Assembly (NCBI GenBank): GCA_050259235.1
Contig: JBLNAG010000002.1
Location: 88,893-152,892 of the forward strand
Reading direction: 5' to 3'
DNA from: Ignavibacteriales bacterium
Lineage (GTDB): Bacteria; Bacillota_I; Bacilli_A; RF39; UBA660
Length of the DNA stretch: 64,000 nt
Below the pieces are notes generated by a model. The model was not told the DNA's origin and ran no database searches. It worked only from the letters and a program-made list of their open reading frames with translations. Below, piece after piece: positions 2,796 through 59,493 of the stretch (its first letter is position 1; each line of letters starts with the position of its first letter). The translations under genes were made by a program, and so were the position numbers.

Positions 2796-2810
2796 CTTAT
2801 TCCTCCTACA

Positions 2811-5956: not shown

Positions 5957-5975
5957 TTACTATACTTTTTTTATT

Positions 5976-7760: not shown

Positions 7761-8317
7761 TAACTCAACACCGTCCCAAAATTAGTAGTTTGTCCACCAT
7801 TCAAGAAATTATCTAATATCATTCTTAAATCATCATTAGTAACTTGATGTGAAGATAATCCAGCACTAGCTAAATTATTAATTAACGTTCTAATTCGTTT
7901 ATTAATAACTTCATTATCTTTTTCTTTAAATAATAAGAAATATTCAGTATCAACAACATTGTTATTCATAAACATGTTAGCTTTATTAATATCTTCCATA
8001 ATTAATTTTCTCTTAGAAGTATTTTGAACATTGTTATATAATAACTCCAATTGTGATAAATACAAATTAATATCAACTGGTCTATCAGCAACCAAAATCC
8101 AAAATTCATAATCAATCATATTGTAGACATTTTTTAAATTACTTATAATGCTACTTTGCATATCTCTTTCCAAGATAAATATATTTCTTGGTAGAATTTT
8201 TACCCCCGTAACTTTTAAATTATTATCAAGAACAATTACACCATTTGTAATACTCTTTATTGGAATATCATCACTAGTATATTTACTTTTGTTGCTCGTT
8301 TTCTCTTTCAATGCCAT
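7760..8317 (-). CDS. T4SS-associated soluble protein of unknown function (N-terminus resembles VirB4 N-domain pattern)
   Basis: 185 aa with no TM. IPIKSITNGVIVLDNNLKVTGVKILPRNIFILERDMQ echoes the VirB4 N-domain pattern. Stop overlaps the VirB4 start by 1 nt. Confidence 0.3.
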   Translation of the reverse strand: MALKEKTSNKSKYTSDDIPIKSITNGVIVLDNNLKVTGVKILPRNIFILERDMQSSIISNLKNVYNMIDYEFWILVADRPVDINLYLSQLELLYNNVQNTSKRKLIMEDINKANMFMNNNVVDTEYFLLFKEKDNEVINKRIRTLINNLASAGLSSHQVTNDDLRMILDNFLNGGQTTNFGTVLS

Positions 8318-8615
8318 CTAGCACACACCAACCTTTCCATACGAATTTTTGCCTTGTCGTAAAAAATGTAAATGCAGACTTTAATAAAACCCTCATATTA
8401 TGATAATTCGGTATTGGTAATACCAAGAATCCTGCGATTAATCCTGGGGCGATTGCTAACAATGCCCAGGTTAAACTTTCAATTGGTAGGATTAACAATA
8501 AAAACATTGTCGCAACCAAACCAATACCAAATATAATTAAATCTTGCCAAGTAAACAATCCAAGTATTAACATTGAACGTTTTGAATTGGCTGGAATTAA
8601 AAATTCATTTTCCAT
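8283..8615 (-). CDS. VirB3-like small membrane protein (PrgI/ConD-type)
   Basis: 110 aa. Two adjacent TM helices after a short N-terminal segment. Positioned immediately upstream of VirB4 as in Gram-positive T4SS. Confidence 0.5.
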   Translation of the reverse strand: MENEFLIPANSKRSMLILGLFTWQDLIIFGIGLVATMFLLLILPIESLTWALLAIAPGLIAGFLVLPIPNYHNMRVLLKSAFTFFTTRQKFVWKGWCVLDGIERENEQQK

Positions 8616-8635
8616 TTTTTATTACACCCCTTCTT

Positions 8636-33243: not shown

Positions 33244-34472
33244 TGAAAAAAATAAAAATACTTATTATATTATTGCTTATTTCCCTTACAACTGGGTGTT
33301 GGAATTATAGAGAATTAAATAATTTAGCGATAGTTAGTGCTATTGGAATCGATGAAGAAGATGGCGTTTATAATGTAAGTGTTCAAGTTATGAATCCTAG
33401 TCAACAAAGTAGTAACTCAAAGTCTGGAGGTTCTAGTAGTCAAACTACACCTGTTGATGTTTACGAAGGAAAAGGTAAATCCATACTTGAAGCAATAAAT
33501 AGTATCTTATTAAAACAACCAAATGATATCTTTCTAGGTCATACTGACCTAATTGTTATTAGTGACCAATTAGCAAGGAAAGGAATTGAAAATTTTATTG
33601 ACTTTCTATTACGAGATAGGCAATCAAGAAAAATATTTCCAATGGTTATTATAAAAAATGCCAAAGCAAGTGATGTTATAAAACTGATTACCCCAATAGA
33701 AACAATATCTAGTAAATATATAAGTTCTACTTTAGAAGCTACAAAGAAAAATAGTGGTGTCCTTAGCGATCGACTTTTTGATGAAATATTGATGTGTTTA
33801 TTTACTAGAGGGAGAGAAGCAACAATATCAGCTATCGAATTGGTTGGTCTCCCTGAAAAGGGTGATGAATCTAAAAATCTTTCTACATCCATCCCTACTA
33901 CTTATTTCAAAATAAGTGGATCTGGTGTCCTTGTTAATGATAGATTAGTTGGATATTTTGATGAAAAGGAAAGTTTAGGATATACCTATATTAGAAATAA
34001 AGTAACTGCTTCAGTTATATCGGTTCCTTGTGATAAGGAAGGAAATTATGCTGGTGTTAAGTTAGAAAAAAGTAAAGCAAGTTTGAAGACCACTATTAAG
34101 GACGGCAAGCCAGTTGGTGAAATTACGTTAAATACTAAAGCGGTAATATCCGAATTCAATTGTAAGGTTGATTTGCTTAAACCTGAAAACATCAAAAAAA
34201 TAGAAGATGCTACAAACAAAGAATTAAAAAAAATATTGAATTATGCTGTGGTTAAAGCTCAAAAAGAACTAAAAAGCGATGTCTTTGGTTTTGGAGAATA
34301 TATTTATAAAAATAAACATAAGGACTGGAAAAAATATGAAGACAATTGGAATGAAACATTTAGTAATATGGAATACAAAATTAAAGTAACAACGGAAATT
34401 AGAAATGTTGGTGCAGCAATAGATTCATTAAAAAATTCATACAGGGGGAATCCTAATTATGGAAAAGAATAA
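33243..34472 (+). CDS. spore germination lipoprotein, GerA-family C subunit
   Basis: Lipobox LTTGCWNYRELNNLAIVSAIGID (Ger(x)C signature). 409 aa. Confidence 0.75.
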   Translation: MKKIKILIILLLISLTTGCWNYRELNNLAIVSAIGIDEEDGVYNVSVQVMNPSQQSSNSKSGGSSSQTTPVDVYEGKGKSILEAINSILLKQPNDIFLGHTDLIVISDQLARKGIENFIDFLLRDRQSRKIFPMVIIKNAKASDVIKLITPIETISSKYISSTLEATKKNSGVLSDRLFDEILMCLFTRGREATISAIELVGLPEKGDESKNLSTSIPTTYFKISGSGVLVNDRLVGYFDEKESLGYTYIRNKVTASVISVPCDKEGNYAGVKLEKSKASLKTTIKDGKPVGEITLNTKAVISEFNCKVDLLKPENIKKIEDATNKELKKILNYAVVKAQKELKSDVFGFGEYIYKNKHKDWKKYEDNWNETFSNMEYKIKVTTEIRNVGAAIDSLKNSYRGNPNYGKE

Positions 34473-35571
34473 CAATATAATTACAGCTGCACAATTTGGT
34501 ATTATTGGTTATTTTTTAGGTAATGCCTTCTTTATAGGAATGGGTGATACTAGCTTAATAAATTTTGCTAGACAAGATACTTGGTTAGCAGCCATATTAG
34601 CAATAATACTTGGACTATTACCTATTGCTATACTAATATACATAATGAATTATAAGCCTGAAAAAAACATCTTAGAAAAGAATAAAGTTTTGTTTGGAAA
34701 GATTTTTGGTAGTTTAATTAATTTTATTATCTTTGCATATATGTTTGTAATAACTATAATACTAATATGGGCAACTAGTAATTATGCAATTATTATTTAT
34801 TTAACTGTTACTCCCCGTTTAGCTATTATTCTACTGTTTGTATCACTCAGTATATATACCGTTATTAAAGGAATAGAAGCAATTTGCCGAACTGGTCAAA
34901 TATTATTTTTTGTAGTATTACTTATGATTGTCTCAATCACCATGGGTCTATTACAATATTCTGATTTTAATAATGTTAAGCCAATTCTTAAAGATGGTGC
35001 TATGCCAATGATTAAAGGATCAATATTGTATTTATCTTATGCATTCACTCCACTAATATCTTTACTTATTATTCCAAAGAAGACTATTAAAGATCAAAAG
35101 AAATTTAATAGATATTTAATAGGAGGTTTTCTCTTCAGTATTATGACAATGGTTTTAGTCTTCTATGTAATAACCTCTGTTTTAACAGTTGATTTGGTAG
35201 ATTTATATCGATATCCAGCATATTATGTTCAAAAGAAACTAGTTATTACCAATTATTTCAATAACGTTGAAAATTTCTTTTCATTACATTGGTTCTTAAA
35301 TTATTTCTTTGGTGTTATAATGTCATTATACTTTTTAAGTAAATATGTACAACATATATTTAAATTTAAAGATTCAAAACATATAAATATTTCAGTTATT
35401 ATATTGGGTTTAATGACAGCTATTGCAGCAAACTACGCATTTAAAAATGGTACTAATGCATTTGATTTTATGAGATATCAATTTCCAATATGGATTGCAG
35501 GAATATTATTTGGAATATTATTACTAACATGTATATTAATATTCATCAGAAAAAAAATAGGAGACACATAA
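34459..35571 (+). CDS. spore germination permease, GerA-family B subunit
   Basis: 370 aa. 10 TM APC-like transporter. Third gene of the gerA-type operon. Confidence 0.7.
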   Translation: MEKNNNIITAAQFGIIGYFLGNAFFIGMGDTSLINFARQDTWLAAILAIILGLLPIAILIYIMNYKPEKNILEKNKVLFGKIFGSLINFIIFAYMFVITIILIWATSNYAIIIYLTVTPRLAIILLFVSLSIYTVIKGIEAICRTGQILFFVVLLMIVSITMGLLQYSDFNNVKPILKDGAMPMIKGSILYLSYAFTPLISLLIIPKKTIKDQKKFNRYLIGGFLFSIMTMVLVFYVITSVLTVDLVDLYRYPAYYVQKKLVITNYFNNVENFFSLHWFLNYFFGVIMSLYFLSKYVQHIFKFKDSKHINISVIILGLMTAIAANYAFKNGTNAFDFMRYQFPIWIAGILFGILLLTCILIFIRKKIGDT

Positions 35572-35583
35572 TCTTCTATTTTT

Positions 35584-36669
35584 TTATGCAAACTTCTTCT
35601 TTCTTAATTTTATTTCAGCGGTTATCCAAATAATTAAAGGAATTATTATTTCAAAAGGAAGAGCATAAATATAGTAAACTTTAATAAAATCCATCATCTC
35701 TAAAATATTAGTGTATATAATTGCTGATAATGCTAAAATTAATAAACTTGTTGGTAGTAATACCTTTTTATAATTAGTTACTGATAATAATTTGGATATT
35801 CCTAAGGAAGCAGCTATTAAGCAAACTGTTATTTTAGTAATTCCAGCAAATAGAAAGTTTATAGTTACTATTCCTTCTATTCTTGTTAAAAAATTTCCTA
35901 ATTCAATTATTCTGGTAGCAGAGAATGAGGGAAAATAAGTTGACAATGCTAACGTTGATCCTAAAACAGTTAAATTTCTTAACATAACAAATAGTAAAAT
36001 GATACTGCCAAATATAATTGCCAACATATATATTTTATATGGACTATCTTCTTTTTTTAGAAAACATGCTAATGGTAAAAATAATACTGTCTCGGCTAGG
36101 GGAAAAGAAATAATTTTATATGTAGCTAACGACAAACCTTTTAAATCAGTTTCCATAATTGGCATAAGATTTTTTACATCAACAATACCCAATGATAAGA
36201 TTATTGTTATTATTAACATTAGAATAACAACAGGTAAAACAACTAATACCCAACTTCCAAAAATAGTTGGTCCACTTTTACCTATATAAATAGCTACCAG
36301 CAATAATACTATTATTATTAATATTTCAGGAGTTTTTAATAATGTGGTTATTTTTATATATTCTGAAAAATTTTTTAAGATCATTGAACATAAGTGAATG
36401 GCATACCATATCATCAAAATAGTAATTATATTACCAATAATTTTGCCAAACAGTTTATAAATTATGTCATATAGTCCTAAACCTGGATATAATTTAATAA
36501 TTCTTGCATATATGAACACTATTGGAAGCGAAAAAAGTGTTGCCAGAATTAGTGTAATCCATGAATCTTGTTTAGCTTCTGTACTTACACCAAAAATAAC
36601 ACTACTACCAAATATAAATAAAACTATTATTGCTATTGCCTGACTAGATGTTATTTTTTCTTTGATCAT
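35584..36669 (-). CDS. spore germination permease, GerA-family B subunit (second operon)
   Basis: 361 aa. MIKEKITSSQAIAIIVLFIFGSSVIFG is a typical GerAB N-terminus. Polytopic. Confidence 0.7.
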   Translation of the reverse strand: MIKEKITSSQAIAIIVLFIFGSSVIFGVSTEAKQDSWITLILATLFSLPIVFIYARIIKLYPGLGLYDIIYKLFGKIIGNIITILMIWYAIHLCSMILKNFSEYIKITTLLKTPEILIIIVLLLVAIYIGKSGPTIFGSWVLVVLPVVILMLIITIILSLGIVDVKNLMPIMETDLKGLSLATYKIISFPLAETVLFLPLACFLKKEDSPYKIYMLAIIFGSIILLFVMLRNLTVLGSTLALSTYFPSFSATRIIELGNFLTRIEGIVTINFLFAGITKITVCLIAASLGISKLLSVTNYKKVLLPTSLLILALSAIIYTNILEMMDFIKVYYIYALPFEIIIPLIIWITAEIKLRKKKFA

Positions 36670-36684
36670 AATTCATGTTCTCCT

Positions 36685-36891
36685 TTAAATTATACTCTTA
36701 ATGGCAGCTTCTATTGGTTTTGCTGGACTAGGTAATGTAACACCTAAACTATAAAGTATCAATATTATCAAAGTAAAAAGAGATGTTCCTATGTAAAATA
36801 AAACAATTTTTTTATTGTCTTTTTTTAAAAGTGGCATAAAATCAAAAATAATTATTAAGGCATATGTTATTAAAATAATTGTTAAATCCAT
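36685..36891 (-). CDS. small two-TM membrane protein within ger operon
   Basis: 68 aa, two hydrophobic helices. Sits between the gerAC-like and gerAB-like genes. Confidence 0.35.
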   Translation of the reverse strand: MDLTIILITYALIIIFDFMPLLKKDNKKIVLFYIGTSLFTLIILILYSLGVTLPSPAKPIEAAIKSII

Positions 36892-36904
36892 TAAATCACC
36901 TCTT

Positions 36905-38056
36905 TTATTTCATAAATGCTGTATTTAGAATATGAACTTTAACATCAACATCAACTTCTACTTCTAAAAAGATATTTCCCCAGTCTTTTTTTATTTTTTT
37001 CCACACTTTTGGATCATTCTTATAAACTAAATTTCCAAAGCTAAAAATATCTACCTTTAATTCCTTTTGTGCCTTTTCAATTAGTTTTTTTATATCCTTA
37101 GTAATTTTTTTCTCAGCCATTTTTTCCATTTTATCTACTTTTTTTGAATCAACCTCCTTATAATTTCCATTTTGTTCACCCAAAATTCCTTCCATTTTAA
37201 CTTTAACATTAAATTTATATTTATCATTATTATTGGAGAAATTTTTCATTGTTGAACTAGTAGCTATTTCAATTGAAACATCATCTTTTTTATCATTGTT
37301 CATATCTAGTGTTATTATTCCACCCTTAACATTGCCTTCAATAAATAAATAACTTTTACTTTCATTTGAAGTCAAATAATCAAATAGTTTATCTTTATTA
37401 AAAACAGCAATTCCATCAGATTCTATAACTTGTTTTTTATCATTTTCTATATTGTGAAATAATGGTAATACTAAAGACATCCCCTTACAATTAAGAGAAT
37501 TAAATACTTTATATAACTCAGAATCTTCAGTATTTGATACTACTGAATTATCTTTCTTTATTATTTTTTTCATCTCAAAGGCCGTTATAGGATTATCTAT
37601 TCCATTTTTTTCTAATAATTCTCTTGCTGTTTTCTCTTTTGAAATAACAAAACTTAATGTTTCACGTATTTCTTCTTCTCTTAGAAAAAAATCAATTACT
37701 GAATTAATTCCTTTTTCTCTAGCAATTTGATTACTAATTATTACTACTTGAACATTACTGAAGTATAATTTATTCATTACCTTTTTCTTACCATTTCTGA
37801 CAGCATCAAAAATAGTAGAACCGGCTGATTCTAAAATAGCTGTTCTTATCTCATTTTGCTGTCTAGATGAACTAGCAGAATTAATAACTTCAAAACTAAG
37901 TTTATATTCATCTTTTTTCTCATCCATATCAATAGCAATACCAGTCACAATTGTAATATCTTCTAATCCAACATAATCCCAACAACCAGTTGTCAGAAAA
38001 ATAAAGAATATTATTGTTAAACTCTTTATAAATTTAGTTACCATTATTAATATCAC
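36905..38056 (-). CDS. spore germination lipoprotein, GerA-family C subunit (second operon)
   Basis: LTTGCWDYVGLEDITIVTGIAIDMD lipobox/GerC signature. 383 aa. Confidence 0.7.
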   Translation of the reverse strand: MILIMVTKFIKSLTIIFFIFLTTGCWDYVGLEDITIVTGIAIDMDEKKDEYKLSFEVINSASSSRQQNEIRTAILESAGSTIFDAVRNGKKKVMNKLYFSNVQVVIISNQIAREKGINSVIDFFLREEEIRETLSFVISKEKTARELLEKNGIDNPITAFEMKKIIKKDNSVVSNTEDSELYKVFNSLNCKGMSLVLPLFHNIENDKKQVIESDGIAVFNKDKLFDYLTSNESKSYLFIEGNVKGGIITLDMNNDKKDDVSIEIATSSTMKNFSNNNDKYKFNVKVKMEGILGEQNGNYKEVDSKKVDKMEKMAEKKITKDIKKLIEKAQKELKVDIFSFGNLVYKNDPKVWKKIKKDWGNIFLEVEVDVDVKVHILNTAFMK

Positions 38057-39584
38057 CTAACGATTTCATGCGAGTTGTATTATTTGATAATATTTTCGGT
38101 CTTTTGAGCATATGCCACCATGGAGATCTAAATGCAATATCCTTATTTTCTTGATATTTAAATCCACCTTTTATATTTACTTGAGATATATCAAATGATT
38201 TTAAGTTAAGAATATGAATAAGTAAAATTGATATACCTATAATAAAACCAAATAATCCTAATGTACTAGCTAATAAAAATAAGAAAATGCGAGCATAAAT
38301 TATAGGTGAATTTAATTTTTGAACTAAAAGACTCGTAATCCCTGTAAAAGCAACAAGAATAATTACTGGTGCTGCTACTAATTTTGCTTCAACCGCTGCT
38401 TGACCAATAACAATAGCTCCTAATACACTAACTGATTGTCCAACATTCTGAGGTATTCTGGCTCCAGTTTCCCGTAATATATCAAAAACTATTAGCATAA
38501 TAGCTAATTCTAAAGCAGCTGGTAGAGGTACACTTTGCCTTTCTGCTGTAACCATTATTAATAATGGTGAAGGTAACATTTCTTGATGATAAGCAACAGT
38601 AGCAATATATAAAGCTGGCAATGTTACAGTTAATAAAAATCCAATAATACGAAGTATTCTAGTAAAAGAAGAAAAATAATATGTTAAGTAATAATCTTCC
38701 GCATTTTGAAAATTTTCAATAAATAAATATGGAATTGTATATACCATAGGTGTCCCATCAACCATAATAGCAATGCGTCCTTCTAAAATCTTAGCAACCA
38801 CTACATCTGGTTTTTCAGTATATCCAGTTGTTCTAAACGGTGATCTTCTATTTTCTCTAGTTAATTCAGATATATAATTAGTATCAAGAATACCATCAAT
38901 TTCTATTTTACTTATGCGCTTATATAATTCATCTAAAACATCTTTGTTTACTACACTTTCAACATAACAAATACATACTTTAGTATTAGTTTTTTCACCA
39001 ATAGTTAAATATTTTATTTTTAAATCATTTGTCCTTAAACGTCTACGAATTAATGATAAATTTTTTAACAATGCCTCATTAAAACCCTCACGTGGCCCAA
39101 TTAAATTTTTTTCACTCTCAGGTTCAGTCATTGATCTTAAATTAAATTGTTTAGTATTTAAGATAAGTACTTTATCAGCACCATCAATGAATAAAACAGT
39201 ATCTCCATACGTTACATTTTCTATAATATCTTTTACTTTATCTGTTATTTTTACATCATCTATTAATAAAACATGTTGCGCTAGGTTATATACAATATTT
39301 TCATCACTAGGATCATACTGTGAAAGCATTAAAGGCTTAATTATATTTTCATTTATCACAATAGAATTAACCATACCATCACAGTAAATCAAACAGTAAT
39401 TAAGACTATCACTGTTATTGTTCTCAAGATATCTTGTTTTGAAATTATCATCGTTCTTAAATAATTCCTTCATATACAAAATATTATCTTCTAAAGATTT
39501 AGAGATAGTTTTTTTTATGTAATTATCATTGAGATGTTCAATTTTATTATTAATGATTGAATTTTTATTGTTTTTTTTGATCAT
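38034..39584 (-). CDS. spore germination protein, GerA-family A subunit (second operon)
   Basis: 516 aa. ILDTNYISELTRENRRSPFRTTGYTEKPDVVVAKILEGRIAIMVDGTP motif block. C-terminal TMs. Confidence 0.8.
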   Translation of the reverse strand: MIKKNNKNSIINNKIEHLNDNYIKKTISKSLEDNILYMKELFKNDDNFKTRYLENNNSDSLNYCLIYCDGMVNSIVINENIIKPLMLSQYDPSDENIVYNLAQHVLLIDDVKITDKVKDIIENVTYGDTVLFIDGADKVLILNTKQFNLRSMTEPESEKNLIGPREGFNEALLKNLSLIRRRLRTNDLKIKYLTIGEKTNTKVCICYVESVVNKDVLDELYKRISKIEIDGILDTNYISELTRENRRSPFRTTGYTEKPDVVVAKILEGRIAIMVDGTPMVYTIPYLFIENFQNAEDYYLTYYFSSFTRILRIIGFLLTVTLPALYIATVAYHQEMLPSPLLIMVTAERQSVPLPAALELAIMLIVFDILRETGARIPQNVGQSVSVLGAIVIGQAAVEAKLVAAPVIILVAFTGITSLLVQKLNSPIIYARIFLFLLASTLGLFGFIIGISILLIHILNLKSFDISQVNIKGGFKYQENKDIAFRSPWWHMLKRPKILSNNTTRMKSLGDINNGN

Positions 39585-39686: not shown

Positions 39687-40559
39687 TTATTTAACAAGCT
39701 TATTAAAACTATCTGGTATAGGCACTTCAAAATGCATTACTTTTTTAGATATAGGATGTTTGAATTCTAATACATTAGCATGTAATCCAAGTCTTTTTAA
39801 AGGATCACTCTTAGAACCATACTTTTTATCTCCTATAACACTATGTCCTAAATCTTTCATATGAACACGTATTTGATTTTTACGCCCTGTATCTAATCTT
39901 ATATCAACTAAAGAATATTTATCATTAGTTCTTAAAACTTGATAATGAGTAATGGCTAAATCCCCATCATGAGGTCTATTTGAGGAGTAAACCATCTTAG
40001 CTTTATTTTCTTTTAGCCATGATTTAATTGTACCATTTGCTTTATCAAATTGTCCTTCAACAATTGCCACATACCCTCTTATAGTTACAATATCATTCCA
40101 ATTATCTTGAAGCATATTTTTAATCTTTTCATTTTTTGCAAATACTAATATCCCTGATGTATCACGGTCTAAACGATGAACAACAAAAATATGTCCTTTA
40201 GGATTTCGAATTCTAATATGTTCTCTTACTAGATGATATGCTGTATTAGTGGATTCTTTATCAGTAGCAATAGATAACAACCCATCAGGTTTATCAACTA
40301 CTACTAAATCATTATCTTCATAAATAATGGATATTGTATTTTTATAGTTCTTTAATATTTGTCTTATTTCAATAATTTGCCCTTTACGTAACTTATAATC
40401 AAATTTAGTTATAGGTTTATTATCTACAAAAACACTTCCTCTACTTAGAATTGACTTAATATTATTTTTAGATTTGTTTTTTAAATGAGTCAATAAATAA
40501 TCTAGTAGTAATGAATCTTGTTCAACATTTAATATTTCTGCTCTTCCTCTTTCTTCCAT
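39687..40559 (-). CDS. RluA-family 23S rRNA pseudouridine synthase (RluD/RluC-like) with S4 domain
   Basis: 290 aa. N-terminal S4-like region. Catalytic HRLDRDTSGILVFAKNE motif. Confidence 0.8.
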   Translation of the reverse strand: MEERGRAEILNVEQDSLLLDYLLTHLKNKSKNNIKSILSRGSVFVDNKPITKFDYKLRKGQIIEIRQILKNYKNTISIIYEDNDLVVVDKPDGLLSIATDKESTNTAYHLVREHIRIRNPKGHIFVVHRLDRDTSGILVFAKNEKIKNMLQDNWNDIVTIRGYVAIVEGQFDKANGTIKSWLKENKAKMVYSSNRPHDGDLAITHYQVLRTNDKYSLVDIRLDTGRKNQIRVHMKDLGHSVIGDKKYGSKSDPLKRLGLHANVLEFKHPISKKVMHFEVPIPDSFNKLVK

Positions 40560-41437
40560 TCTCTATTACCTTTTTTCTTAATATAAGAAAAACCTTTCAT
40601 TTCTTTCGTAAGTTCTTCAGATAGTATAACATCACATACTTTACTAACAGGCCCGATTAAATAAATGTTATCATCAGGCATCATTTCAACCTTTAATTCA
40701 CCACCTGGCATATGGACAATTACTTTACTGTCAATTAAATCTAGTTTACGTGCGACCACTGCTGCTGCACAACTACTTGTTCCTGAAGCTAAAGTATATC
40801 CAGCCCCACGTTCATATATCTCAATCTGTATATTACTTCTGTCAATTACTTTCATAAACTGTACATTAATGCGTCTAGGAAAGTGTCCATCAATTTCAAT
40901 AATTGGTCCTAACTCTTTAGCAATATCACTAGAGATTTCTTCCATAAGAAGAACACAATGAGGATTACCAACTGATACACATGACACTTTATATTCATGA
41001 CCATTAAATATCATCATTTCATTTACTACTTCCCTTTTAGAACCAGTCACAGGGATAGTATCACTCATAAATGAAGCCTTACCAATTAGGACTTTAATTA
41101 AATTATCTCTTAAGTAATCTATTTCTACTCTTCCACCTAATGTTTCTACCGTGACTGTTCCATCTTTAACGTATCCTTCATCTAATAGATATCTTGCAAA
41201 TATTCTAACCCCATTACCGCTTTTTTCAGCTTCACTACCATCAGGATTATATATTTTTAATTTTATTTTATCATCTTCAAAGATTGGTCCATATAAGATA
41301 CCATCTGATCCTACTCCATAATGACGATCACATAATAGCTTTACGTTATCCTCTGTTAGTAATAAATCATTTTCATTATAATCTAATACTATATAATCAT
41401 TTCCAAGCCCATGATATTTAGACACTTTATAACTCAT
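40529..41437 (-). CDS. dapF: diaminopimelate epimerase
   Basis: YHGLGNDYIVLD..., GNPHCV and SGTSSCAAAV (two catalytic Cys motifs). Confidence 0.85.
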   Translation of the reverse strand: MSYKVSKYHGLGNDYIVLDYNENDLLLTEDNVKLLCDRHYGVGSDGILYGPIFEDDKIKLKIYNPDGSEAEKSGNGVRIFARYLLDEGYVKDGTVTVETLGGRVEIDYLRDNLIKVLIGKASFMSDTIPVTGSKREVVNEMMIFNGHEYKVSCVSVGNPHCVLLMEEISSDIAKELGPIIEIDGHFPRRINVQFMKVIDRSNIQIEIYERGAGYTLASGTSSCAAAVVARKLDLIDSKVIVHMPGGELKVEMMPDDNIYLIGPVSKVCDVILSEELTKEMKGFSYIKKKGNREWKKEEEQKY

Positions 41438-50484: not shown

Positions 50485-53073
50485 TTATTTTATTTGATAC
50501 CAATTACTCCCATCTTCTATTTCTACTTTTAATGGAACATTTAATTTATAAGTATTTTCCATTATATTTTCAATTATTTTTTTAACTTGTTCTACTTCAC
50601 TATTTAAAACATCAAAAACTAATTCATCGTGAACTTGAAGGATCATTTTACTATTTAAATTTTGCTTTTTGAATTCAGCAGCTATTTCAATCATAGCTTT
50701 TTTAATTATATCGGCACTTGTACCTTGAATTGGCGTATTAAGGGCAATTCTTTCTCCTTGTTGTCTAATCATATAATTTGTATTTGCAAGTTCAGGTATC
50801 TTGCGCTTGCGATTTAGTAGCGTTTTAACATATCCATGTTTTTTAGCTTCTTCAATAGTACTATCCATATATTCCTTAATACCAGGATAAGTGTCTAAAT
50901 AATTGTCAATAAAACTTTTAGCTTCTTGAACACTAATACTCAAATTTTCTGACAAACCAAAACTACTTATTCCATAAATAATTCCAAAATTAACAGCTTT
51001 TGCAATTCTACGCATATTCTTACTTACTTCATCAATTGATACATGAAAGATATCACTGGCTGTTTTAGTATGAATATCTAAATTATTATTAAAAGCATCA
51101 ATCAATGATTGAACATTAGACATATGAGCAAGAATTCGAAGTTCTATTTGTGAATAATCCCCACTTACAATAACAGAATTATCACTAGGTACAAAAGCTT
51201 TACGAATAAGTCTACCATAATCATAACGAATTGGAATGTTTTGTAGATTAGGTTCAATTGATGAAAGACGACCAGTTCGTGTTAAAGCTTGTGTATAAAT
51301 GGTATGAATTTTACCATCATTTAAACAAGCATTAATTAATCCATCGATATATGTTGAATATAGTTTGGTAAGCATTCTGTACTCAATAATATCATCAATA
51401 ATTGAATGTTTACCTTTTAATTTATTCAAAACATCAATCGCAGTAGAATACCCACTCTTTCCCTTTTTGCCATGAGGTAATCCTAATTTTTCAAATAAAA
51501 TTTCCCCTAATTGAATTGGTGAAGATATATTAAATTCTTGTCCTGCTTGATTATATATATTTTTACTAATTAGTTCAATTTTAATTTTTATTTCTTCTCC
51601 CATATCAACTAATGTTTCTTTATCAACATGGACACCATTATATTCCATATCTCCTAAAACATATGATAAAGGTAACTCAATATCACTAAATAAGTGATAT
51701 AATTCTTCTTCCTTTAATTGTTTAGTAAACAAATTATAAGTATCATAAATAAACTTAGCTTTAATGATACTATTGTAAGCAATAATATCTATACTAGGTT
51801 CTTCTAATTTATTTTCTTTACCATATACATTTTCATAAAAGGATATATCATTATCAAATTGATTAGCTAGATAAGCAATATCATCTTTAATATTATAATC
51901 TAACAAGTAAGCTGCAAGCATTGTATCAAAAGTAACATTTGATATCTTGATATTATGCCATTTTAAAGCTACATATGTCTTCTTAAAATCATAAGTATAT
52001 TTATTAATATTATTTAAAAAAGTAGGGTTTTGTTGTAATAATTCAAAAGGAATAAAGAAACTATTTTCCCCATTATAAACTCCCATTCCTAATATTTTAG
52101 AGGTATGATAATTCGTACCTAATATTTCCAAATAAATAGCACAGTCACTATTTAAATTTATTTCTTTAATATCTTTAATAGTTTTAAATTCTAAAGGTTT
52201 AGTTGATTCTGGTGCTTGTTCCTTTTTTAAAAAAGAATAAAATTCTAATTCTTCATATAAACCATTTAATTCTTTATTTTTATTTCCCATATATTTAATA
52301 TCATTAATATCAATATCCATTGGAACATTTTTACAAATAGTAGCAAGATCATAACTCATATAAGCTTGGTCTTTATCAGCAATTAATTTTTCTTGCATTT
52401 TACCTTTGATTTTATCAATATTTCCATATACACCATCTAAGCTGCCATAATCTTGTAATAATTTTAAAGCAGTCTTTTCACCTATTCCTTTTACACCTGG
52501 AATATTATCAGAAGGATCTCCCATTAAAGCTTTTAAATCAATTATTCTAATAGGATCTATTCCATATTCATTTTTAAATGTTTCTTCATTATAACGAATA
52601 TAATCCTTTTGTTTTAATAACTTAATATCTACATCACTACTAATTAATTGTAATAAATCTTTATCACTACTAATAATAGTGCCAATATATTCACTTTCTT
52701 TATCACAATATTTAGCAAATGTACCAATTATATCATCAGCCTCATAATTATCTATTTCATAGTACTTTATTCCCATTGCTGTTAATAATTCTTTAGCAAC
52801 TGGAAATTGTGCTTTTAATTCGTTAGGAGTTTCTATTCTTCCATCTTTATAATTTTCATATTTATCATGACGAAATGTTTTACCTTTATCAAAAGCAACA
52901 ATCATATATGTAGGTTTTTCTTCTAAGACTATTTTATTAATCATATTAGCAAAACCAAATAATGCATTAGTTGGAAAATCTTTACTATTCTTCATAAAAT
53001 TTCCATTATATGCCGTTGCATAATAGCTTCTAAATAATAAATTGTTTCCATCCACTAAGATTATTTTTTCCAT
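50485..53073 (-). CDS. polA: DNA polymerase I
   Basis: N-terminal 5'-3' exonuclease (ILVDGNNLLFRSYYA). Polymerase motifs RRIAKAVNFGIIYG and LQVHDELVF. Start set at MEKIIL with an AGGTGA RBS. Confidence 0.9.
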   Translation of the reverse strand: MEKIILVDGNNLLFRSYYATAYNGNFMKNSKDFPTNALFGFANMINKIVLEEKPTYMIVAFDKGKTFRHDKYENYKDGRIETPNELKAQFPVAKELLTAMGIKYYEIDNYEADDIIGTFAKYCDKESEYIGTIISSDKDLLQLISSDVDIKLLKQKDYIRYNEETFKNEYGIDPIRIIDLKALMGDPSDNIPGVKGIGEKTALKLLQDYGSLDGVYGNIDKIKGKMQEKLIADKDQAYMSYDLATICKNVPMDIDINDIKYMGNKNKELNGLYEELEFYSFLKKEQAPESTKPLEFKTIKDIKEINLNSDCAIYLEILGTNYHTSKILGMGVYNGENSFFIPFELLQQNPTFLNNINKYTYDFKKTYVALKWHNIKISNVTFDTMLAAYLLDYNIKDDIAYLANQFDNDISFYENVYGKENKLEEPSIDIIAYNSIIKAKFIYDTYNLFTKQLKEEELYHLFSDIELPLSYVLGDMEYNGVHVDKETLVDMGEEIKIKIELISKNIYNQAGQEFNISSPIQLGEILFEKLGLPHGKKGKSGYSTAIDVLNKLKGKHSIIDDIIEYRMLTKLYSTYIDGLINACLNDGKIHTIYTQALTRTGRLSSIEPNLQNIPIRYDYGRLIRKAFVPSDNSVIVSGDYSQIELRILAHMSNVQSLIDAFNNNLDIHTKTASDIFHVSIDEVSKNMRRIAKAVNFGIIYGISSFGLSENLSISVQEAKSFIDNYLDTYPGIKEYMDSTIEEAKKHGYVKTLLNRKRKIPELANTNYMIRQQGERIALNTPIQGTSADIIKKAMIEIAAEFKKQNLNSKMILQVHDELVFDVLNSEVEQVKKIIENIMENTYKLNVPLKVEIEDGSNWYQIK

Positions 53074-53104
53074 ATATATCACCTACATTAATTATAGCAT
53101 AAAA

Positions 53105-53127
53105 AAATAGAATAAATTATTCTATTT
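53105..53127 (-). terminator. palindromic rho-independent terminator (copy 1 of a 27-nt motif)
   Basis: aaaaaaatagaataaAttattctattt: a perfect hairpin plus a U-run on the minus transcript. It lies downstream of the pilin-like gene and upstream of polA. Confidence 0.5.
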
Positions 53128-53329
53128 GAAAATATGACAACTATCTTGACTCATTTAACATATTCTCAATTTTATATTTTAAGTTATAACTATTACTATG
53201 TTTAATATGACCATAACAACTATTCAAACCTTTCTTCATGTATTATATTTTTTCGTTTGAATTTTTCAAAAAAAATGCTAAGATTACTAACATAATCTTA
53301 GCATTGCTTTGTGATTTAGTGTGAGAAAC

Positions 53330-54988
53330 CTACGGTTTCATCTGGACAAGACGGAACGAGTCGTAGCTGCTGGATTCCCCAGTGATGCTGTAGAAGTAGA
53401 ATGCTCCCCCAACAGTAGTGTTGTAATAGTCGCCCCCACGGACCGACCAAGGATTAGAAGTGCTTACAAAGAATGCGCCATCACTGTACCAACCACTTGT
53501 TTCAGATAAAGCATTTCCGTAACAAATTCCACCACTACATGCAGTTGATGCTGTTGTAGTTGTGTATCTATCCCAATATTCATTTGTTGGTAAAGTTCCA
53601 GCTGTAGTTACAGCGCCAAATCCACTACTATCTGTTACTGATGTTGCGTCTGTTGGACGATACATTCCCATTGTATATTCCCATGTTCCCCCACTCATGT
53701 CATATATTCCATATATATTTCCAGTAGTACTTGCTTTATATGCTAATGTTTTATCACTTAATTCATTATTTGTTACTGTACAATTAGCATTTATTCCTGG
53801 TGCTAAGGTTGTTGTAGTAGCACATTTTCCATCATAAGTATAAAAACCGGTATTTATATATTCGTTTCCACCTACTAAGATTTGGCTTCCCCCAACATTC
53901 CCTCCGCTTCGTCCAGTATAATAACTACTGCTATTATTTTTATATATTTCGCTATTTATTCCATATTGACTATGTGATAGATATGCGATTGCTCCCCATT
54001 CACTATCCTTCGCCATATGAATTTTTCCATCAGTACTTGTTCCATATGTGGCATTATTTTGCATTGCTCTTGAACTATCATACATTGCTTTTACCGTTTG
54101 ACTTCGTAGTGATGTTATATTCGGTAGTATAGTTGGACTACCTATAGTTCCCGTTGTTTCAAATTTTCCTACCCACATACCTGATACTTCAGTTGTTCCA
54201 AAAGTAAATGCTGGATGAGTTCTATAATTTGTATCAACCGCATTGCCTGTTGATTTGGTTGTTGTTTTGGATTCAAAGATAATATTTATACTTCTTGCGC
54301 CAGTTCCTGATGGTATGGCATATTTATATCTTGGTATCCATACCCACATTGTATTTATATCACTCAAAGGTATAACTGTTCCCGGTAATGCATTTAAATA
54401 AGTTGTTCTATTGGTGCTAGTTACTGTTACAGCATTCGCCCATTCTTTATTATTATAATCATACCATTTATCTATTACATTTGCTTTTATCCAATTTGTT
54501 CCATCCCATTTAACAGGTATCATTCCTGTTGTTAATTCTGGCATTGAAGCTCCACTTGAGTCTACATATAGAGGAACATTACAATTATCAATTGCTTCTT
54601 CGGTTAGAATTATCTCACTATCATAATATCCTTTTTTAGTACAATACGTTCCATTATGAATAGCGATAGCTACTTGTCCTTCACTATTTATAATAACATT
54701 ACCTGATTTAGGTTTATTTCCATTATAATCTAACTTTTTTCCAGACACACTAGATGATTCTACTCCATCATTATAAGTAAATGTTACTTCTCCAGTTATT
54801 CCATTTAACAAATCCTTAGAATATAACATTTCTCCTGATTTTACTATTCCATATGCCGAATCTTTAAATGCTTCTTTCGTAGCATTATTAATTAATCCTA
54901 TAATAATTGGAGTTGCTATCAATGCAATAATTGCTAAAATAACGATAACTGCTAATAATTCTATTAATGTAAAACCTTGATTTTTCAT
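53330..54988 (-). CDS. prepilin-type N-terminal cleavage/methylation-domain protein fused to a large C-terminal domain (FGE/sulfatase-modifying-factor-like C-terminus suspected)
   Basis: MKNQGFTLIELLAVIVILAIIALIATP is the type IV pilin class III signal. 552 aa. The C-terminus ...WSVRGGDYYNTTVGGAFYFYSITGESSSYDSFRLVQ resembles the RGG...GFRLV end of FGE-sulfatase domains. The last roughly 170 nt are about 48% GC. Confidence 0.6.
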   Translation of the reverse strand: MKNQGFTLIELLAVIVILAIIALIATPIIIGLINNATKEAFKDSAYGIVKSGEMLYSKDLLNGITGEVTFTYNDGVESSSVSGKKLDYNGNKPKSGNVIINSEGQVAIAIHNGTYCTKKGYYDSEIILTEEAIDNCNVPLYVDSSGASMPELTTGMIPVKWDGTNWIKANVIDKWYDYNNKEWANAVTVTSTNRTTYLNALPGTVIPLSDINTMWVWIPRYKYAIPSGTGARSINIIFESKTTTKSTGNAVDTNYRTHPAFTFGTTEVSGMWVGKFETTGTIGSPTILPNITSLRSQTVKAMYDSSRAMQNNATYGTSTDGKIHMAKDSEWGAIAYLSHSQYGINSEIYKNNSSSYYTGRSGGNVGGSQILVGGNEYINTGFYTYDGKCATTTTLAPGINANCTVTNNELSDKTLAYKASTTGNIYGIYDMSGGTWEYTMGMYRPTDATSVTDSSGFGAVTTAGTLPTNEYWDRYTTTTASTACSGGICYGNALSETSGWYSDGAFFVSTSNPWSVRGGDYYNTTVGGAFYFYSITGESSSYDSFRLVQMKP

Positions 54989-55148
54989 TTCTACACTCCC
55001 TAAAATTTTTACTATATAAATGAATTATAACATTTTGATGTTTTTATTTCAACATAGTTAATTTATTTTACCAAATTTTAACATATATTAACTATAATTT
55101 AATATTTTGATGAAAAAAATTCTAAAAACGATATCAATATAACTTAAA

Positions 55149-55172
55149 AAAATAGAATAATTTATTCTATTT
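55149..55172 (-). terminator. palindromic rho-independent terminator (copy 2 of the 27-nt motif) after polC
   Basis: aaaaaaatagaataaTttattctattt overlapping the polC stop (55174). Confidence 0.5.
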
Positions 55173-55173
55173 C

Positions 55174-58100
55174 TTAAAACAATGTTAATTGACTAGATTC
55201 AGGCATACCATCAAGTATTCCCATTGCACGCATTTTATCAATCAATGTCCCTGAAACTTTACCGCGTTTTTGAAGATCTTCAATACTTAAGAAAGAACCT
55301 TTTTCTCTTTCTTCAACTATTTTCATTGCTACTGTACCTCCAAGACCATCAATTGTTCTAAATGGTGGAATTAATGTTTTATTATCTTCATCAATTAAAA
55401 ATTTAGTAGAATCTGATTTATATAAATCAATATTAGCAAAACTATATCCTCTTGCAGACATTTCTAATGCACTTTTTAAAACATCTAAAATAGAATTTTC
55501 TTTATTTGATGCATCATATCCTTTATTTCTAATATCATTTATTCTTTCTTTAATTGCATTATATCCTTTGATCATTGCTTCAATATCAAAATCAAAACAT
55601 CTAACTGAGAAGAAAGCAGAATAATATTCAATTGCTCGATATACTTTAAACCATGCAACACGAAGAGCCATCATAACATATGCTGTAGCATGTGCTTTAG
55701 GGAACATGTATTTGATTCTTCGGCAAGATTCAATGTACCAATCAGCTATTTTTCCTTCTCTCATGATATTATCAAATTTTATCCAACCTTCAGGATCAGC
55801 TGTAGGCTTACCCTTACGAACAAATTCCATTATTTTGAAGGCATCAATTGGTTTTAATCCTTGATATATTAGATATACCATGATATCATCACGACAACCA
55901 ATTACTTCATCAAATTGGATAACTTTTTGATCAATCAAATCTTTAGCATTATTAAGCCATACATCAGTACCATGTGATAATCCTGAAACTTTAACTAATT
56001 CTGCAAATGATTTTGGTCTAGTGTCTTTTAACATTCCAATTACAAAGTCAGTTCCAAATTCCGGAACTCCATAAGTCCCCACTTCACATTCAATTTGTTC
56101 TTTTGTTATGCCTAATGCTTCAGTAGAAGAGAATAAACTTAATACCCCTTTATCATCAAAAGGAATTTCTTTCATATCTAGTCCACTTATATCTTGTAAC
56201 ATTCTAAGAACGGTCGGATCATCGTGCCCTAGTATATCTAGTTTTAAGACATAGTCATGAATAGCATGGAAGTCAAAATGTGTTGTATACCATGCAGCAT
56301 CTCTATCATCAGCTGGATATTGGTATGGGGTAAAGTCAAAGACATCCATATAGTTTGGAATAACAACTATTCCACCTGGATGTTGCCCAGTTGTCCTTTT
56401 AACACCAGTACATCCTAGTGCTAGTCTTTCAACTTCAGCATTTCTAATCATAATACCTCTATCTTCAGAATACCCCTTAACAAAACCATAAGCAGTCTTA
56501 TCAGCTACTGTACCAATCGTTCCAGCACGATAAACATATTCTGGCCCAAACAATTCTTTGGTATATGCATGAGCTCTAGCTTGATATTCTCCAGAGAAGT
56601 TAAGATCAATATCCGGTACTTTATCTCCATCAAATCCTAAGAATGTCGCAAAGGGCATATCTTGTCCTTCTTTTTTCATCTTAGTTCCACAAGTACATTT
56701 CCTATCAGGTAAATCATATCCTGATGCATAATCCTTTCCTAAAGGAACACCATTTAATTCGAATATTGACGTTTTACAATTTGGACACACATAATGAGCT
56801 GGTAAAGGGTTAACTTCTGTTATTCCCATCATTGTTGCTGCAAAAGATGAACCAACTGATCCACGACTTCCAACTAGATAACCATCATCATTTGATTTTT
56901 TAACTAGTTTTTGAGCAATCAAATAAATAACATCAAATCCATGTCCTATAATACTATCTAGTTCTTGTTTAATTCTTGCTTCAACAATCTCAGGTAAAAC
57001 TTCACCATATACTTCATGAGCTCGTTTATTTACCATCTCAGTTACTTCTTTATCAGAACCTTCAAAAATAGGTGTATATGGTTCTTTTTCATTCTTAATT
57101 ATTTTTACATTTTCAACCATATCTGCAATTAAATTAGTATTTTCTATTACAATTTTATTTCTAAGACTTTCATCTAAAAAACTAAATGCTTCTAACATTT
57201 CTTTGGTTGTTCTTAAATGAAAACTTGGAATACTTCTTATTGACTTTTTATTTAAAGGATGTAGTCCCCCACCAGGATTTTTTTGATTAACAATTATCTC
57301 ACGATATATTTTATCTTTTTTATCTAGATGGTGTGAATCACTAGTAGCAACGACAATTAAATCATTATCTTCTGCCACCCTAATTATCTTTTCCACATGA
57401 TTCTTTAATTCTATTTCATTATTAAATTCACCTAATTGTATTAAATGATCATAAATATCTAATGGTTGAACTTCAATATAATCAAAGAATCTCATGATAT
57501 TACCTAATTCATCATCACTAACACTTCTTGCTCTATTAAATACTTCACCATTAGCACAAGAACTACCAATTAATAATCCTTCTCTTAATGAATCTACTTG
57601 ACTCTTTAATATTCTTGGTGTTTTAAATAAATATTTTGTATTAGCATCTGATATTAATTTATATAAATTTTTAATACCTATATTATTTTTAGCTAGGATA
57701 GTTATATGATACATACTACCAAATTTAAATATATCTTCTTTAGTCATTATCTTATTTAAATCATTAATAACTTCTACTCCTCTAGCACTAAGAATTCTTA
57801 ACATTTTTGATAACACAATAGCCGTAGCTTCTGCATCATAATCAGCTCTATGATGTGATTCTTCATCAAATTGTACATCATATCTCTTAGTAACAACACT
57901 TAAATTGTGTTTTGCTTCATCAGGATTTAAGATTCTACTTAATTGCATTGTATCAATAATTGGATTAACTAATTCTCCTAAGTTATACCTACTATAAACA
58001 CTTGATAAGAAAGATCTATCAAATTTAGCATTATGCGCAACTAGTGGTAAGTCACCAATCCACTCTTTAAATGTTTTAGTAACTTCTTCTTCATTTCTAC

Positions 58101-59493
58101 AATCTTTAACCATATCATCTGTTATATGAGTAAATTTAGTAATATGTTCAGGTATTTTTCTACCAGGATTAATTAATTCATCAAATCTATCAATTATTTC
58201 TCCATCAGATATTTTTACAGCCCCAATTTCAATTAATGAGTCACCACTAGTAGCGTTAAAACCTGTTGTTTCAACGTCAAATACAACATAAGTAATACCC
58301 ATGATTGGTTTATCAGATGATCCGAATACAACATCAATTTGATCATCAATAACATTAAGTTCTGTACCATAAATTACTTTGATAGGATTTTCATTATCCT
58401 TATTTACTTTCTTGGCTGTCCCATATGCTTCAGGAAAAGATTGAACACTATTATGATCAGTTAAGGCAATTGCTTTATGTCCCCATTTAGAAGCCCTTTT
58501 AATTAATGCTTCAGCACTCACTAGTCCATCCATTTGACTCATAAAAGTATGAGTATGTAATTCTACTCTTTTAATCTCCTCATTATCTTTTATTACTTCA
58601 TCTTTACTCTTAATTTCTACTATATCTCTAGCATTTAAAACTAGATCTTTAGAGTATTGATCATTTTTAGTGTACCCTCTTATTTTAACCCATTTTCCAG
58701 CATTTAATTTTTTTGTTAATGCACTAAACTCATCACTATCCTTAGAAAACACTTTACAAAACATACTATCTGTATAATCACTTATTTTTAAGGTTAGTAT
58801 TTTAAAATTACTTTTAGATGATTCAAAAATATCTACACCAAAAATAAAACATTCAACAATAACATTATTATCTTCATAAGTAACATCTTTTATTTCATAA
58901 TTTTTTTCATTATCAAAATCAATTCCAAGAATTACTTTGGATTCAACTTCTTTTTTTGATTCAACAACTATCGTATTACGCATAGCTTCTATTTCAGCGA
59001 CTATCTCTTTTGATTTTTCCTCATTGATTTTAATATCTATTTCAATGTCACCATATCCAATACATTTAAAATCTTCTATTAAATTTTTACACACACTCTT
59101 CAATTTCATTTTTTCTGCTTTGTTGTTTACTTCAACAGTTAAAATATTATTTTCTAATATAATATTACTATCAACGAATGTCTTTAAAAGAGGATATTTA
59201 ACACTATATTGATTTATTAAGTTATTAAAGTACTCAATTAATTTACTATCATCAAATTTTTCTACACAAAAAATTGGTTTAACAATTTCAAATTGATTAA
59301 ACCCTTGTTTAAGTAATTCACAAAATTGATTGTAAATGTCAACTGGTAATAGATTAGTTAATGTAATATGGAAGTAATAACTACTTTCTTTCTTTTTACC
59401 TTCTATTTTATTTAATGTGGCATCTTCAAAATATTTATGATCCTCTATATTCATATTAATTTTTTCTAATAATAATTTCATTTTCTCTTGCAT
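55174..59493 (-). CDS. polC: DNA polymerase III PolC-type (Gram-positive replicative polymerase)
   Basis: 1439 aa. PHP HTHTFMSQMDG. Embedded DnaQ-like exonuclease VVFDVETTGF...YDAEAT. Polymerase core. GGGTGG RBS. Confidence 0.9.
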   Translation of the reverse strand: MQEKMKLLLEKINMNIEDHKYFEDATLNKIEGKKKESSYYFHITLTNLLPVDIYNQFCELLKQGFNQFEIVKPIFCVEKFDDSKLIEYFNNLINQYSVKYPLLKTFVDSNIILENNILTVEVNNKAEKMKLKSVCKNLIEDFKCIGYGDIEIDIKINEEKSKEIVAEIEAMRNTIVVESKKEVESKVILGIDFDNEKNYEIKDVTYEDNNVIVECFIFGVDIFESSKSNFKILTLKISDYTDSMFCKVFSKDSDEFSALTKKLNAGKWVKIRGYTKNDQYSKDLVLNARDIVEIKSKDEVIKDNEEIKRVELHTHTFMSQMDGLVSAEALIKRASKWGHKAIALTDHNSVQSFPEAYGTAKKVNKDNENPIKVIYGTELNVIDDQIDVVFGSSDKPIMGITYVVFDVETTGFNATSGDSLIEIGAVKISDGEIIDRFDELINPGRKIPEHITKFTHITDDMVKDCRNEEEVTKTFKEWIGDLPLVAHNAKFDRSFLSSVYSRYNLGELVNPIIDTMQLSRILNPDEAKHNLSVVTKRYDVQFDEESHHRADYDAEATAIVLSKMLRILSARGVEVINDLNKIMTKEDIFKFGSMYHITILAKNNIGIKNLYKLISDANTKYLFKTPRILKSQVDSLREGLLIGSSCANGEVFNRARSVSDDELGNIMRFFDYIEVQPLDIYDHLIQLGEFNNEIELKNHVEKIIRVAEDNDLIVVATSDSHHLDKKDKIYREIIVNQKNPGGGLHPLNKKSIRSIPSFHLRTTKEMLEAFSFLDESLRNKIVIENTNLIADMVENVKIIKNEKEPYTPIFEGSDKEVTEMVNKRAHEVYGEVLPEIVEARIKQELDSIIGHGFDVIYLIAQKLVKKSNDDGYLVGSRGSVGSSFAATMMGITEVNPLPAHYVCPNCKTSIFELNGVPLGKDYASGYDLPDRKCTCGTKMKKEGQDMPFATFLGFDGDKVPDIDLNFSGEYQARAHAYTKELFGPEYVYRAGTIGTVADKTAYGFVKGYSEDRGIMIRNAEVERLALGCTGVKRTTGQHPGGIVVIPNYMDVFDFTPYQYPADDRDAAWYTTHFDFHAIHDYVLKLDILGHDDPTVLRMLQDISGLDMKEIPFDDKGVLSLFSSTEALGITKEQIECEVGTYGVPEFGTDFVIGMLKDTRPKSFAELVKVSGLSHGTDVWLNNAKDLIDQKVIQFDEVIGCRDDIMVYLIYQGLKPIDAFKIMEFVRKGKPTADPEGWIKFDNIMREGKIADWYIESCRRIKYMFPKAHATAYVMMALRVAWFKVYRAIEYYSAFFSVRCFDFDIEAMIKGYNAIKERINDIRNKGYDASNKENSILDVLKSALEMSARGYSFANIDLYKSDSTKFLIDEDNKTLIPPFRTIDGLGGTVAMKIVEEREKGSFLSIEDLQKRGKVSGTLIDKMRAMGILDGMPESSQLTLF

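Follow-up and report, generated by a model that had tools for sequence, protein, structure and literature searches.

Diversity-generating retroelements (DGRs) and modular type IV pilins are each known, but there is hardly any record of a type IV pilin presenting a hypervariable lectin domain of the DGR type. The modular design itself is known and widespread among pilins, and FGE/sulfatase modules are absent from the main text of the survey that describes it (PMC8179133). Pilins go unmentioned in the main text of a large global DGR survey (PMC8144416), a 'GspG-type pilin' domain is named in passing among rare proteins that bear a DGR variable region (VR) (PMC11661182), and most cellular DGR targets of the Bacillota have been described as resembling phage receptor-binding proteins, not pilins (bioRxiv 10.1101/2024.11.15.621889). 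Here we analyse a stretch of 64,000 nucleotides (the window) from contig JBLNAG010000002.1 of assembly GCA_050259235.1, a metagenome-assembled genome (MAG) in which an open reading frame (ORF) for a 552-residue protein (P0001; MGE5455869.1) lies on the minus strand between polC (55174..59493) and polA (50485..53073), both of which were confirmed by Pfam. We propose, as the probable reading, that this protein is an adhesin displayed on pili and open to hypermutation by the cell, in which a type IV pilin module carries a C-type-lectin domain ending in a putative DGR VR.

The closest described protein is TaqVP, the DGR variable protein of Thermus aquaticus (PDB 5vf4, PMC6328139), from which the window protein differs in adding an N-terminal type IV pilin module and in being known without a cognate template repeat (TR) or reverse transcriptase (RT) from the 64-kb window; sequence identity is 14–18%. 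The genomic logic is like that of the Treponema denticola DGR that serves TvpA (PDB 2y3c, PMC5758913), a multi-target system with remote targets, although TR and RT are known there and neither was located within 64 kb here. PilB and PilC of Streptococcus sanguinis, with a vWA and a lectin module respectively (PMC8179133, PMC9934059), have the same build in a monoderm member of the Bacillota—a small class III signal-peptide pilin module with a bulky grafted ligand-binding module—whereas the module grafted here is a DGR-type C-type-lectin domain with a hypervariable-looking end. The type V pilus adhesins that DGRs diversify in gut Bacteroides (bioRxiv 10.1101/2024.11.15.621889) are alike in that the adhesive part of a pilus is the target of hypermutation by a retroelement, again in host-associated bacteria; they belong to another pilus class (Bacteroidota) and another protein family, and TR, RT and activity have been demonstrated for them.

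The protein begins MKNQG followed by FTLIELLAVIVIL, that is, with a leader ending in Gly and a hydrophobic mature N terminus that contains Glu5 and the N-methylation motif. The canonical prepilin signal recognized in a first-pass annotation of this DNA is borne out by PF07963 (E 1e-7, 31.7 bits; cut-off 21.2) and TIGR02532 (E 5e-8, 32.4 bits; cut-off 16.3). An AlphaFold (AF2) model built from an 85-sequence alignment (pLDDT 91.2, pTM 0.89) extends this signal to a full pilin fold, with a long α1 helix (residues 7–60) packed on a four-stranded antiparallel β-sheet. A profile of the protein family matches type IV pilins at E 3e-10, and by sequence the N-terminal module is closest to S. sanguinis PilE1. 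The protein thus joins a pilin module to a domain foreign to type IV filament biology, and is a modular pilin in the sense of PMC8179133.

In the model, the C-terminal module is an FGE-subclass C-type-lectin domain of the kind that DGRs hypermutate. The top Foldseek match is TaqVP (E 9e-11), which the family profile also matches from sequence alone (E 7e-4). Structure comparison of the model gave 13.8 for PvdO, 13.3 for T. denticola TvpA, which is a lipoprotein and not a pilin, 12.0 for pFGE, 11–12 for EgtB, OvoA and PorK and 11.1 for Mtd, the DGR protein of a Bordetella phage. The FGE-like C terminus proposed at first pass is therefore right at the level of the fold and falls short at the level of the Pfam family: against PF03781 (FGE-sulfatase; the family of pFGE (1y4j), EgtB, PvdO and PorK), the protein scores 20.8 bits, under the gathering cut-off of 23.3, through one 36-residue stretch, and the homologues at two other loci, L103 and L085 (L numbers denote loci other than the window), have no PF03781 match at all. 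The nearest relatives of the module, and the nearest structures, are non-enzymatic hypervariable proteins rather than enzymes, and nothing suggests catalysis.

The 3′ end of the gene has a composition unlike the rest. GC content reaches 0.50 in 53300–53449 and 0.47 in 53375–53524, against 0.284 across the window. The first-pass annotation had seen this GC-rich end in a 28%-GC genome and left it unexplained; the codon-usage and GC profiling that it advised turns out to show the pattern of a DGR VR. NNC codons account for 44% of the last 50 codons before the terminal QMKP, 5% of the rest of the gene and 6% of 15 housekeeping genes in the window (binomial p 3e-14). Adenine falls to 0.19 from 0.40, while thymine holds steady (0.29 versus 0.27), and the conserved residues of the tail are encoded by codons that lack A and are seldom used in this genome (TCG, GTC, CGT, CTT and GGG/GGC). 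Because the anomaly is adenine-specific and codon-specific, with T unchanged, a generic foreign-GC island was rejected as its source. In the mechanism that we propose, the last ~165 nt (53333–53503) would be the VR and their odd composition the trace of reverse transcription that is mutagenic at adenines: random bases put in wherever an A-rich template codon (AAC/AAT or an A-ending codon) has an adenine would yield NNC codons, few adenines and a higher GC content. We consider it likely that the tail was written by a DGR; that it is being rewritten at present is a weaker proposition, to which we attach less confidence.

The gene has many relatives, and some of them stand beside DGRs. The pilin fusion, called unusual at first pass, is no one-off and belongs to a large family (7573 matches at E≤1e-3). 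At L082 and L083 (viral contigs) and at L102, L103 and L110 (metagenome contigs), the family gene is accompanied by a TR, a MutS-I-like gene, bAvd and an RT of the RVT_1 type with an IGNYxSQ...YMDD motif; L103 is chromosomal, with the cassette between glyA and obg. TR/VR pairs were found beside the homologues at L082, L103, L102, L085 and L099, and their mismatches concentrate at template adenines (adenine versus other, 19/0 in L082, 17/4 in L103 and 17/5 in L085). The homologue in L085 (79–2683) is itself prepilin-fused (PF07963); its adjoining TR (1870–2026) looks intact, and what is left of the remainder is fragments of the MutS-I-like gene and the last ~30 residues of the RT; the locus is a decayed DGR cassette. 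N termini are interchangeable within the family, with non-pilin signal anchors in L103, L082 and P0009.

Across 90 family genes in the fetched loci, the NNC fraction of the tail is bimodal. The high class holds 39 of them, including all five RT-adjacent genes (0.35–0.46), and the window gene (0.44) falls in it too. Most genes of the high class have no RT within 10 kb, and remote targets, or relics, are therefore common in the family.

Some further features of these loci are recorded here. The small MutS domain I protein (PF01624, E 6e-9) is encoded between TR and avd (L103 12016–12384; L082 3996–4409); a MutS-like accessory gene has reportedly been noted in DGR surveys. Family members often lie in tandem, two or three together (L131, L134, L137, L090, L092 and L143), and in L143 both tandem members carry a VR-like signature. 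A tblastn search of GenBank phages with the C-type-lectin module gave no match.

The source genome itself holds at least nine paralogs (MGE5455684 to MGE5456693, locus-tag prefix ACM3O4), which are among the best database matches; one lies 109 proteins away on the same contig as the window gene, and one is named ComGC by NCBI. The last ~50 residues of nine paralogs share a fixed scaffold,.W..D...F.....PW...GG........G.F......G......SFR, with hypervariability at 35 of the 50 columns. Identity in the VR is 48% (standard deviation 7) irrespective of identity over the rest of the protein, which ranges from 36% to 84%; this uncoupling would be expected if each VR had been drawn independently from a common template. 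Lys, Glu, Gln, Met and Trp cannot be reached from AAY codons, and they make up 2.5% of residues at the hypervariable VR columns as compared with 16.7% at other variable columns (Fisher p 3e-14). The tail therefore combines an A-depleted sequence, codons of the AAY-derived NNC/NNT type and variable sites poor in these five residues, the combined footprint of adenine mutagenesis.

The paralog P0079, the only one with readable DNA (on the Logan contig L164), shows how much of the 3′ end is held in common. It is 41% identical overall to the window protein. At the DNA level, the two genes are 68% identical in the VR and 85% identical (80/94) in the next 94 nt (53239–53332), and 46% identical on both sides; similarity begins at the VR, so that the shared 3′ module, tail plus terminator hairpin, measures ~265 nt. 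The 14-bp terminator stem is preserved in P0079 through a compensatory G–C to U–A double change, and the 3′-module motifs are confined to loci of this organism. Judged from this conservation, 53239–53332 is a candidate cis element that would mark targets for the DGR of this genome. A tandem paralog upstream of P0079 (L164 8402–9991) lacks both the A-depleted signature (NNC 0.16) and the 3′ module. Its codons at the equivalent positions are AAT-rich (…RGGAYNNTTDAGVFNFN…), as though this copy were unmutated or in a template-like state.

The same data bear on the idea that the gene is a mosaic made without any retroelement, its 3′ end or the entire cassette having come by recombination or gene conversion from a higher-GC donor or a paralog, with ordinary diversifying selection acting on the binding loop. 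The composition does shift sharply near 53500, the gene itself has apparently been inserted, and a 3′ module common to a paralog is also what gene conversion would give. We nevertheless regard this account as very improbable: the anomaly is a deficit of A, with T unchanged, and an excess of NNC codons rather than a general GC shift; the variable columns avoid exactly the residues that AAY codons cannot reach; the closest structure is that of a DGR variable protein; and homologues have canonical TR/VR pairs beside DGR RTs.

Several observations weigh against a hypermutable, pilus-displayed adhesin. An adenine-tolerant sliding scan of both strands for a TR in the window returned self-matches only, and Pfam searches of essentially all window ORFs of ≥100 residues found no RT or Avd. 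A profile made from the L103 and L082 RTs gave more than 6000 matches, and none of the best 120 is traceable to this MAG. A search for VR variants with the last 103 residues, which yielded five candidates and one unrelated fragment, did not recover the query itself and carries no weight in either direction. An independent assembly of the same sequencing run has an identical VR and reads straight through it, with no hint of VR heterogeneity within the sample. The two VR DNAs available from this genome, those of the window gene and P0079, differ evenly at all three codon positions, which fits one shared TR only if that TR is rich in third-position adenines; as a TR may have such adenines, the comparison does not discriminate. 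A 6-bp hairpin across the stop codon is no better than shuffled sequences (z −0.86) and was not counted as a DGR hairpin, and gene conversion between paralogs is an alternative source of the shared 3′ module. In the wider family, 77 of 80 metagenome loci have no RT in the fetched DNA and L085 shows that cassettes decay, so the VR of the window gene could be a relic. As for display, no type IVa/Com machinery (prepilin peptidase, ATPase or platform protein) is encoded within the 64-kb window.

If the VR is a fossil, the gene would descend from a DGR target whose retroelement was lost or inactivated, the protein would be a static pilin-tethered lectin and the composition a historical footprint. 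That no RT, Avd or TR lies in the window, that the independent assembly holds a single VR haplotype, that the prepilin-fused homologue of L085 has a TR but a deleted RT, and that about half of the family is without the signature, through loss or because it was never there, are all in keeping with such a history. We consider it unlikely, though a live rival, because the NNC fraction of 0.44 matches that of genes beside intact cassettes in spite of strong AT pressure (6% NNC background), and because VRs differ among paralogs that are 80–84% identical elsewhere, so that rewriting must have continued past the latest duplications. The 3′ flank and its hairpin are likewise conserved, with compensatory change, between paralogs only 41% identical. 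Cellular DGRs are also documented to have targets that lie more than 100 kb away from the RT (PMC5758913). On the reading that we prefer, that of a hypermutable adhesin, the window gene would be a remote (trans) target, one of at least nine scattered paralogs with the same VR scaffold.

On the cell surface, the proposal of a hypermutable pilus adhesin has prepilin peptidase cleaving after Gly5 (MKNQG–FTLIE) and the hydrophobic α1 helix inserting the protein into a type IV or Com-type filament, most likely as a minor pilin at the filament tip because the extra module is bulky (~45 kDa). Alternatively, the prepilin N terminus might be only a membrane anchor or export signal, as in a pseudopilin, leaving the lectin on the cell surface or in a competence or secretion pseudopilus; this would be compatible with a DGR-written tail. 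The gene is the sole prepilin gene in the window and has no type IVa machinery nearby, NCBI's choice of ComGC for one paralog points the same way, and the N termini of the family are interchangeable with non-pilin anchors. We think this alternative somewhat unlikely, since the protein has a full pilin fold, with α1 helix, β-sheet and Glu5, beyond a mere signal, and experimentally characterized modular pilins with grafted adhesion modules do enter filaments (PMC8179133). The surface-displayed, pilin-tethered binding domain suggested at first pass is a reasonable function.

The gene is equipped for independent expression. Its near-consensus promoter is followed by an AGGGAG ribosome-binding site 8 nt upstream of the ATG, and its own terminator (53274–53305; −19.1 kcal/mol, z −6.1) is much stronger than the hairpins of the repeats described below. 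Right after this terminator, a near-consensus promoter-like site on the minus strand (53242–53269; TTGAAA, 16 nt, TATAAT) is aimed at polA, and the 3′ flank of P0079 keeps a version of it (TTGAAA, 16 nt, TATGAT). The site may restore downstream transcription after insertion or drive some further transcript. The feature coordinates are collected in Table 1.

Table 1 Features of the polC–polA interval, in window coordinates
Feature	Coordinates	Strand	Description
polA start and ribosome-binding site	ATG 53071–53073; ribosome-binding site 53080–53084	−	
polA-proximal repeat copy	53093..53127	−	Overlaps polA −10 box TGcTATAAT (53091–53099)
Conserved 3′ flank	53239..53332	−	Holds terminator hairpin 53274–53305 and promoter-like site 53242–53269
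Modular type IV pilin/DGR-type variable protein gene	53330..54988	−	552 residues
C-terminal module, ~residues 150–552	53333..54541	−	Small β domain, then FGE-subclass C-type-lectin fold of DGR variable-protein type (model)
Putative DGR VR	53333..53503	−	GC-rich, A-depleted, NNC-codon-rich 3′ end
Pilin module, ~residues 1–135	54584..54988	−	Five-residue leader MKNQG, mature N terminus FTLIE
Pilin-gene promoter	55024..55052	−	TTGAAA, 17 nt, TG-TATAAT; 11/12 matches, extended −10, near-consensus
polC-proximal repeat copy	55138..55172	−	polC intrinsic terminator hairpin (−8.9 kcal/mol, z −3.35), T-run and 8 more nt

The interval between polC and polA is a variable slot. Among relatives with 65–76% identical PolA, no gene separates the two in L005 (173-nt gap) or L020 (70-nt gap), and other relatives have unrelated genes in the gap; the sequence of CAYPGI01, a relative at 90% in polA, is truncated at this place. 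L020, which has no insert, runs polC stop, terminator hairpin, TGnTATAAT, ribosome-binding site and polA, presumably the ancestral layout, and the polA-proximal repeat copy of the window preserves the same order. In the window, the insert contains the pilin gene alone and is bracketed by a 35-nt direct repeat, made up of the polC terminator and part of the polA promoter, whose copies are identical at 32 of 35 positions (91%) and spaced by 2045 nt. The window contains exactly two copies of the 23-nt palindromic core (0.02 expected), and both repeat copies fold as a hairpin followed by a T-run. This duplication was left behind by an insertion or recombination event. The duplicated 27-bp terminator of the first-pass annotation was thus a true duplication cut short, and it had been placed across the polC stop in error: the stop occupies 55174–55176, the repeat begins just past it and only the extended stem reaches it.

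The further claim that the gene is a cassette inserted with a copy of the flanking terminator survives in part. The gene is not ancestral in all relatives, as the adjacency in L005 and L020 shows, and the duplication is real. Against it, L004 (6157–7869) has a 570-residue modular pilin in the polC–polA position, with a pilin module 43% identical to that of the window and a BspA-type LRR_5 C terminus (E 1e-53), and no terminator duplication; recent cassette insertion is therefore not the only reading. The insert contains no recombinase or other mobility gene. Direct repeats flank it, but neither a recombinase or transposase, nor att, attC or inverted-repeat ends, nor recurring flanks were found. 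Flanking repeats are also not a family trait; once tandem paralogs are set aside, the window ranks first. It is an entire unit of promoter, gene, putative VR, terminator and outward promoter that occupies this slot.

Near polA in L034 there is a modular pilin of yet a third kind; in this clade, the same pilin module is reused with differing C-terminal modules. In L002, L006, L014 and L015, the opposite strand of the polC–polA gap carries an ORF of ~310–350 residues that starts MKIRLGY(A/V)(A/C)(L/I)SKT…, which may be a UV-damage endonuclease (UvdE).

The arrangement was checked in the Logan assembly of run SRR24085913, which is independent and unitig-based. One of its contigs spans polC to window position 54948 and another spans 53642 to polA and further; both junctions are identical base for base, and the polC-proximal repeat copy is identical in the Logan contig L166. 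Since the junctions are reproduced in an independent assembly, a repeat-bracketed gene created as an artefact of MAG assembly was ruled out.

Elsewhere in the window, a cluster on the minus strand (531–17767) resembles a conjugative element, with genes for a VirD4/TraG-type coupling protein (531–2795), an M23 peptidase protein (3563–5956), a VirB4/TraG P-loop ATPase (5976–7760), a TrbL-like protein (8636–10639), a T2SSE ATPase (15647–16930) and RcpC/CpaB (16934–17767), and a DUF5411 gene at 17799–18209. The cluster combines a type IV secretion system with a Tad-like set and has no relation to the machinery expected for a prepilin gene; its T2SSE-type ATPase, the only one in the window, is Tad-like and paired with RcpC/CpaB. 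Beside it on the minus strand are two very large ORFs (18469–21999 and 22131–25313; 1176 and 1060 residues) with no Pfam match at E≤1e-5. The window also carries two complete, convergent GerA/GerC/spore-permease germinant-receptor operons (31765–35571 on the plus strand and 35584–39584 on the minus strand) and a DAP epimerase gene (40529–41437), from which we conclude that the organism is a walled spore-former and not a mollicute. The NCBI label 'Ignavibacteriales' was rejected as the true taxon: polC, the GerA operons, the 28% GC content and a PolA closest (65–90%) to those of uncultured Bacilli and 'Tenericutes' gut MAGs indicate that the label of the source MAG looks wrong.

In its widest form, which we put forward tentatively as possible rather than probable, the proposal is that one trans-acting DGR in a small-genome, spore-forming gut- or digester-type member of the Bacillota hypermutates a scattered repertoire of type IV pilin tip adhesins, six to nine or more in number, each with a portable ~265-nt 3′ module (VR, recognition/terminator hairpin and outward promoter) that marks it and lets such genes drop between essential genes such as polC and polA. 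For the search for DGR targets in general, a gene of an AT-rich genome that turns abruptly richer in GC and in NNC codons at its 3′ end can be flagged as a possible orphan or remote target, of the sort that RT-centred DGR finders miss; current Pfam models do not capture this large family. If one DGR does serve many pilins, the system would match, among type IV pili, what is known from the DGR-diversified type V pili of Bacteroides, with a multi-receptor, antibody-like adhesin repertoire on pili. Should the retroelement be present and active, the pilus tips of this organism would carry a set of adhesins open to rapid re-programming, which would be relevant to the ways in which uncultured Bacilli with reduced genomes adhere to hosts, prey, particles or partners.

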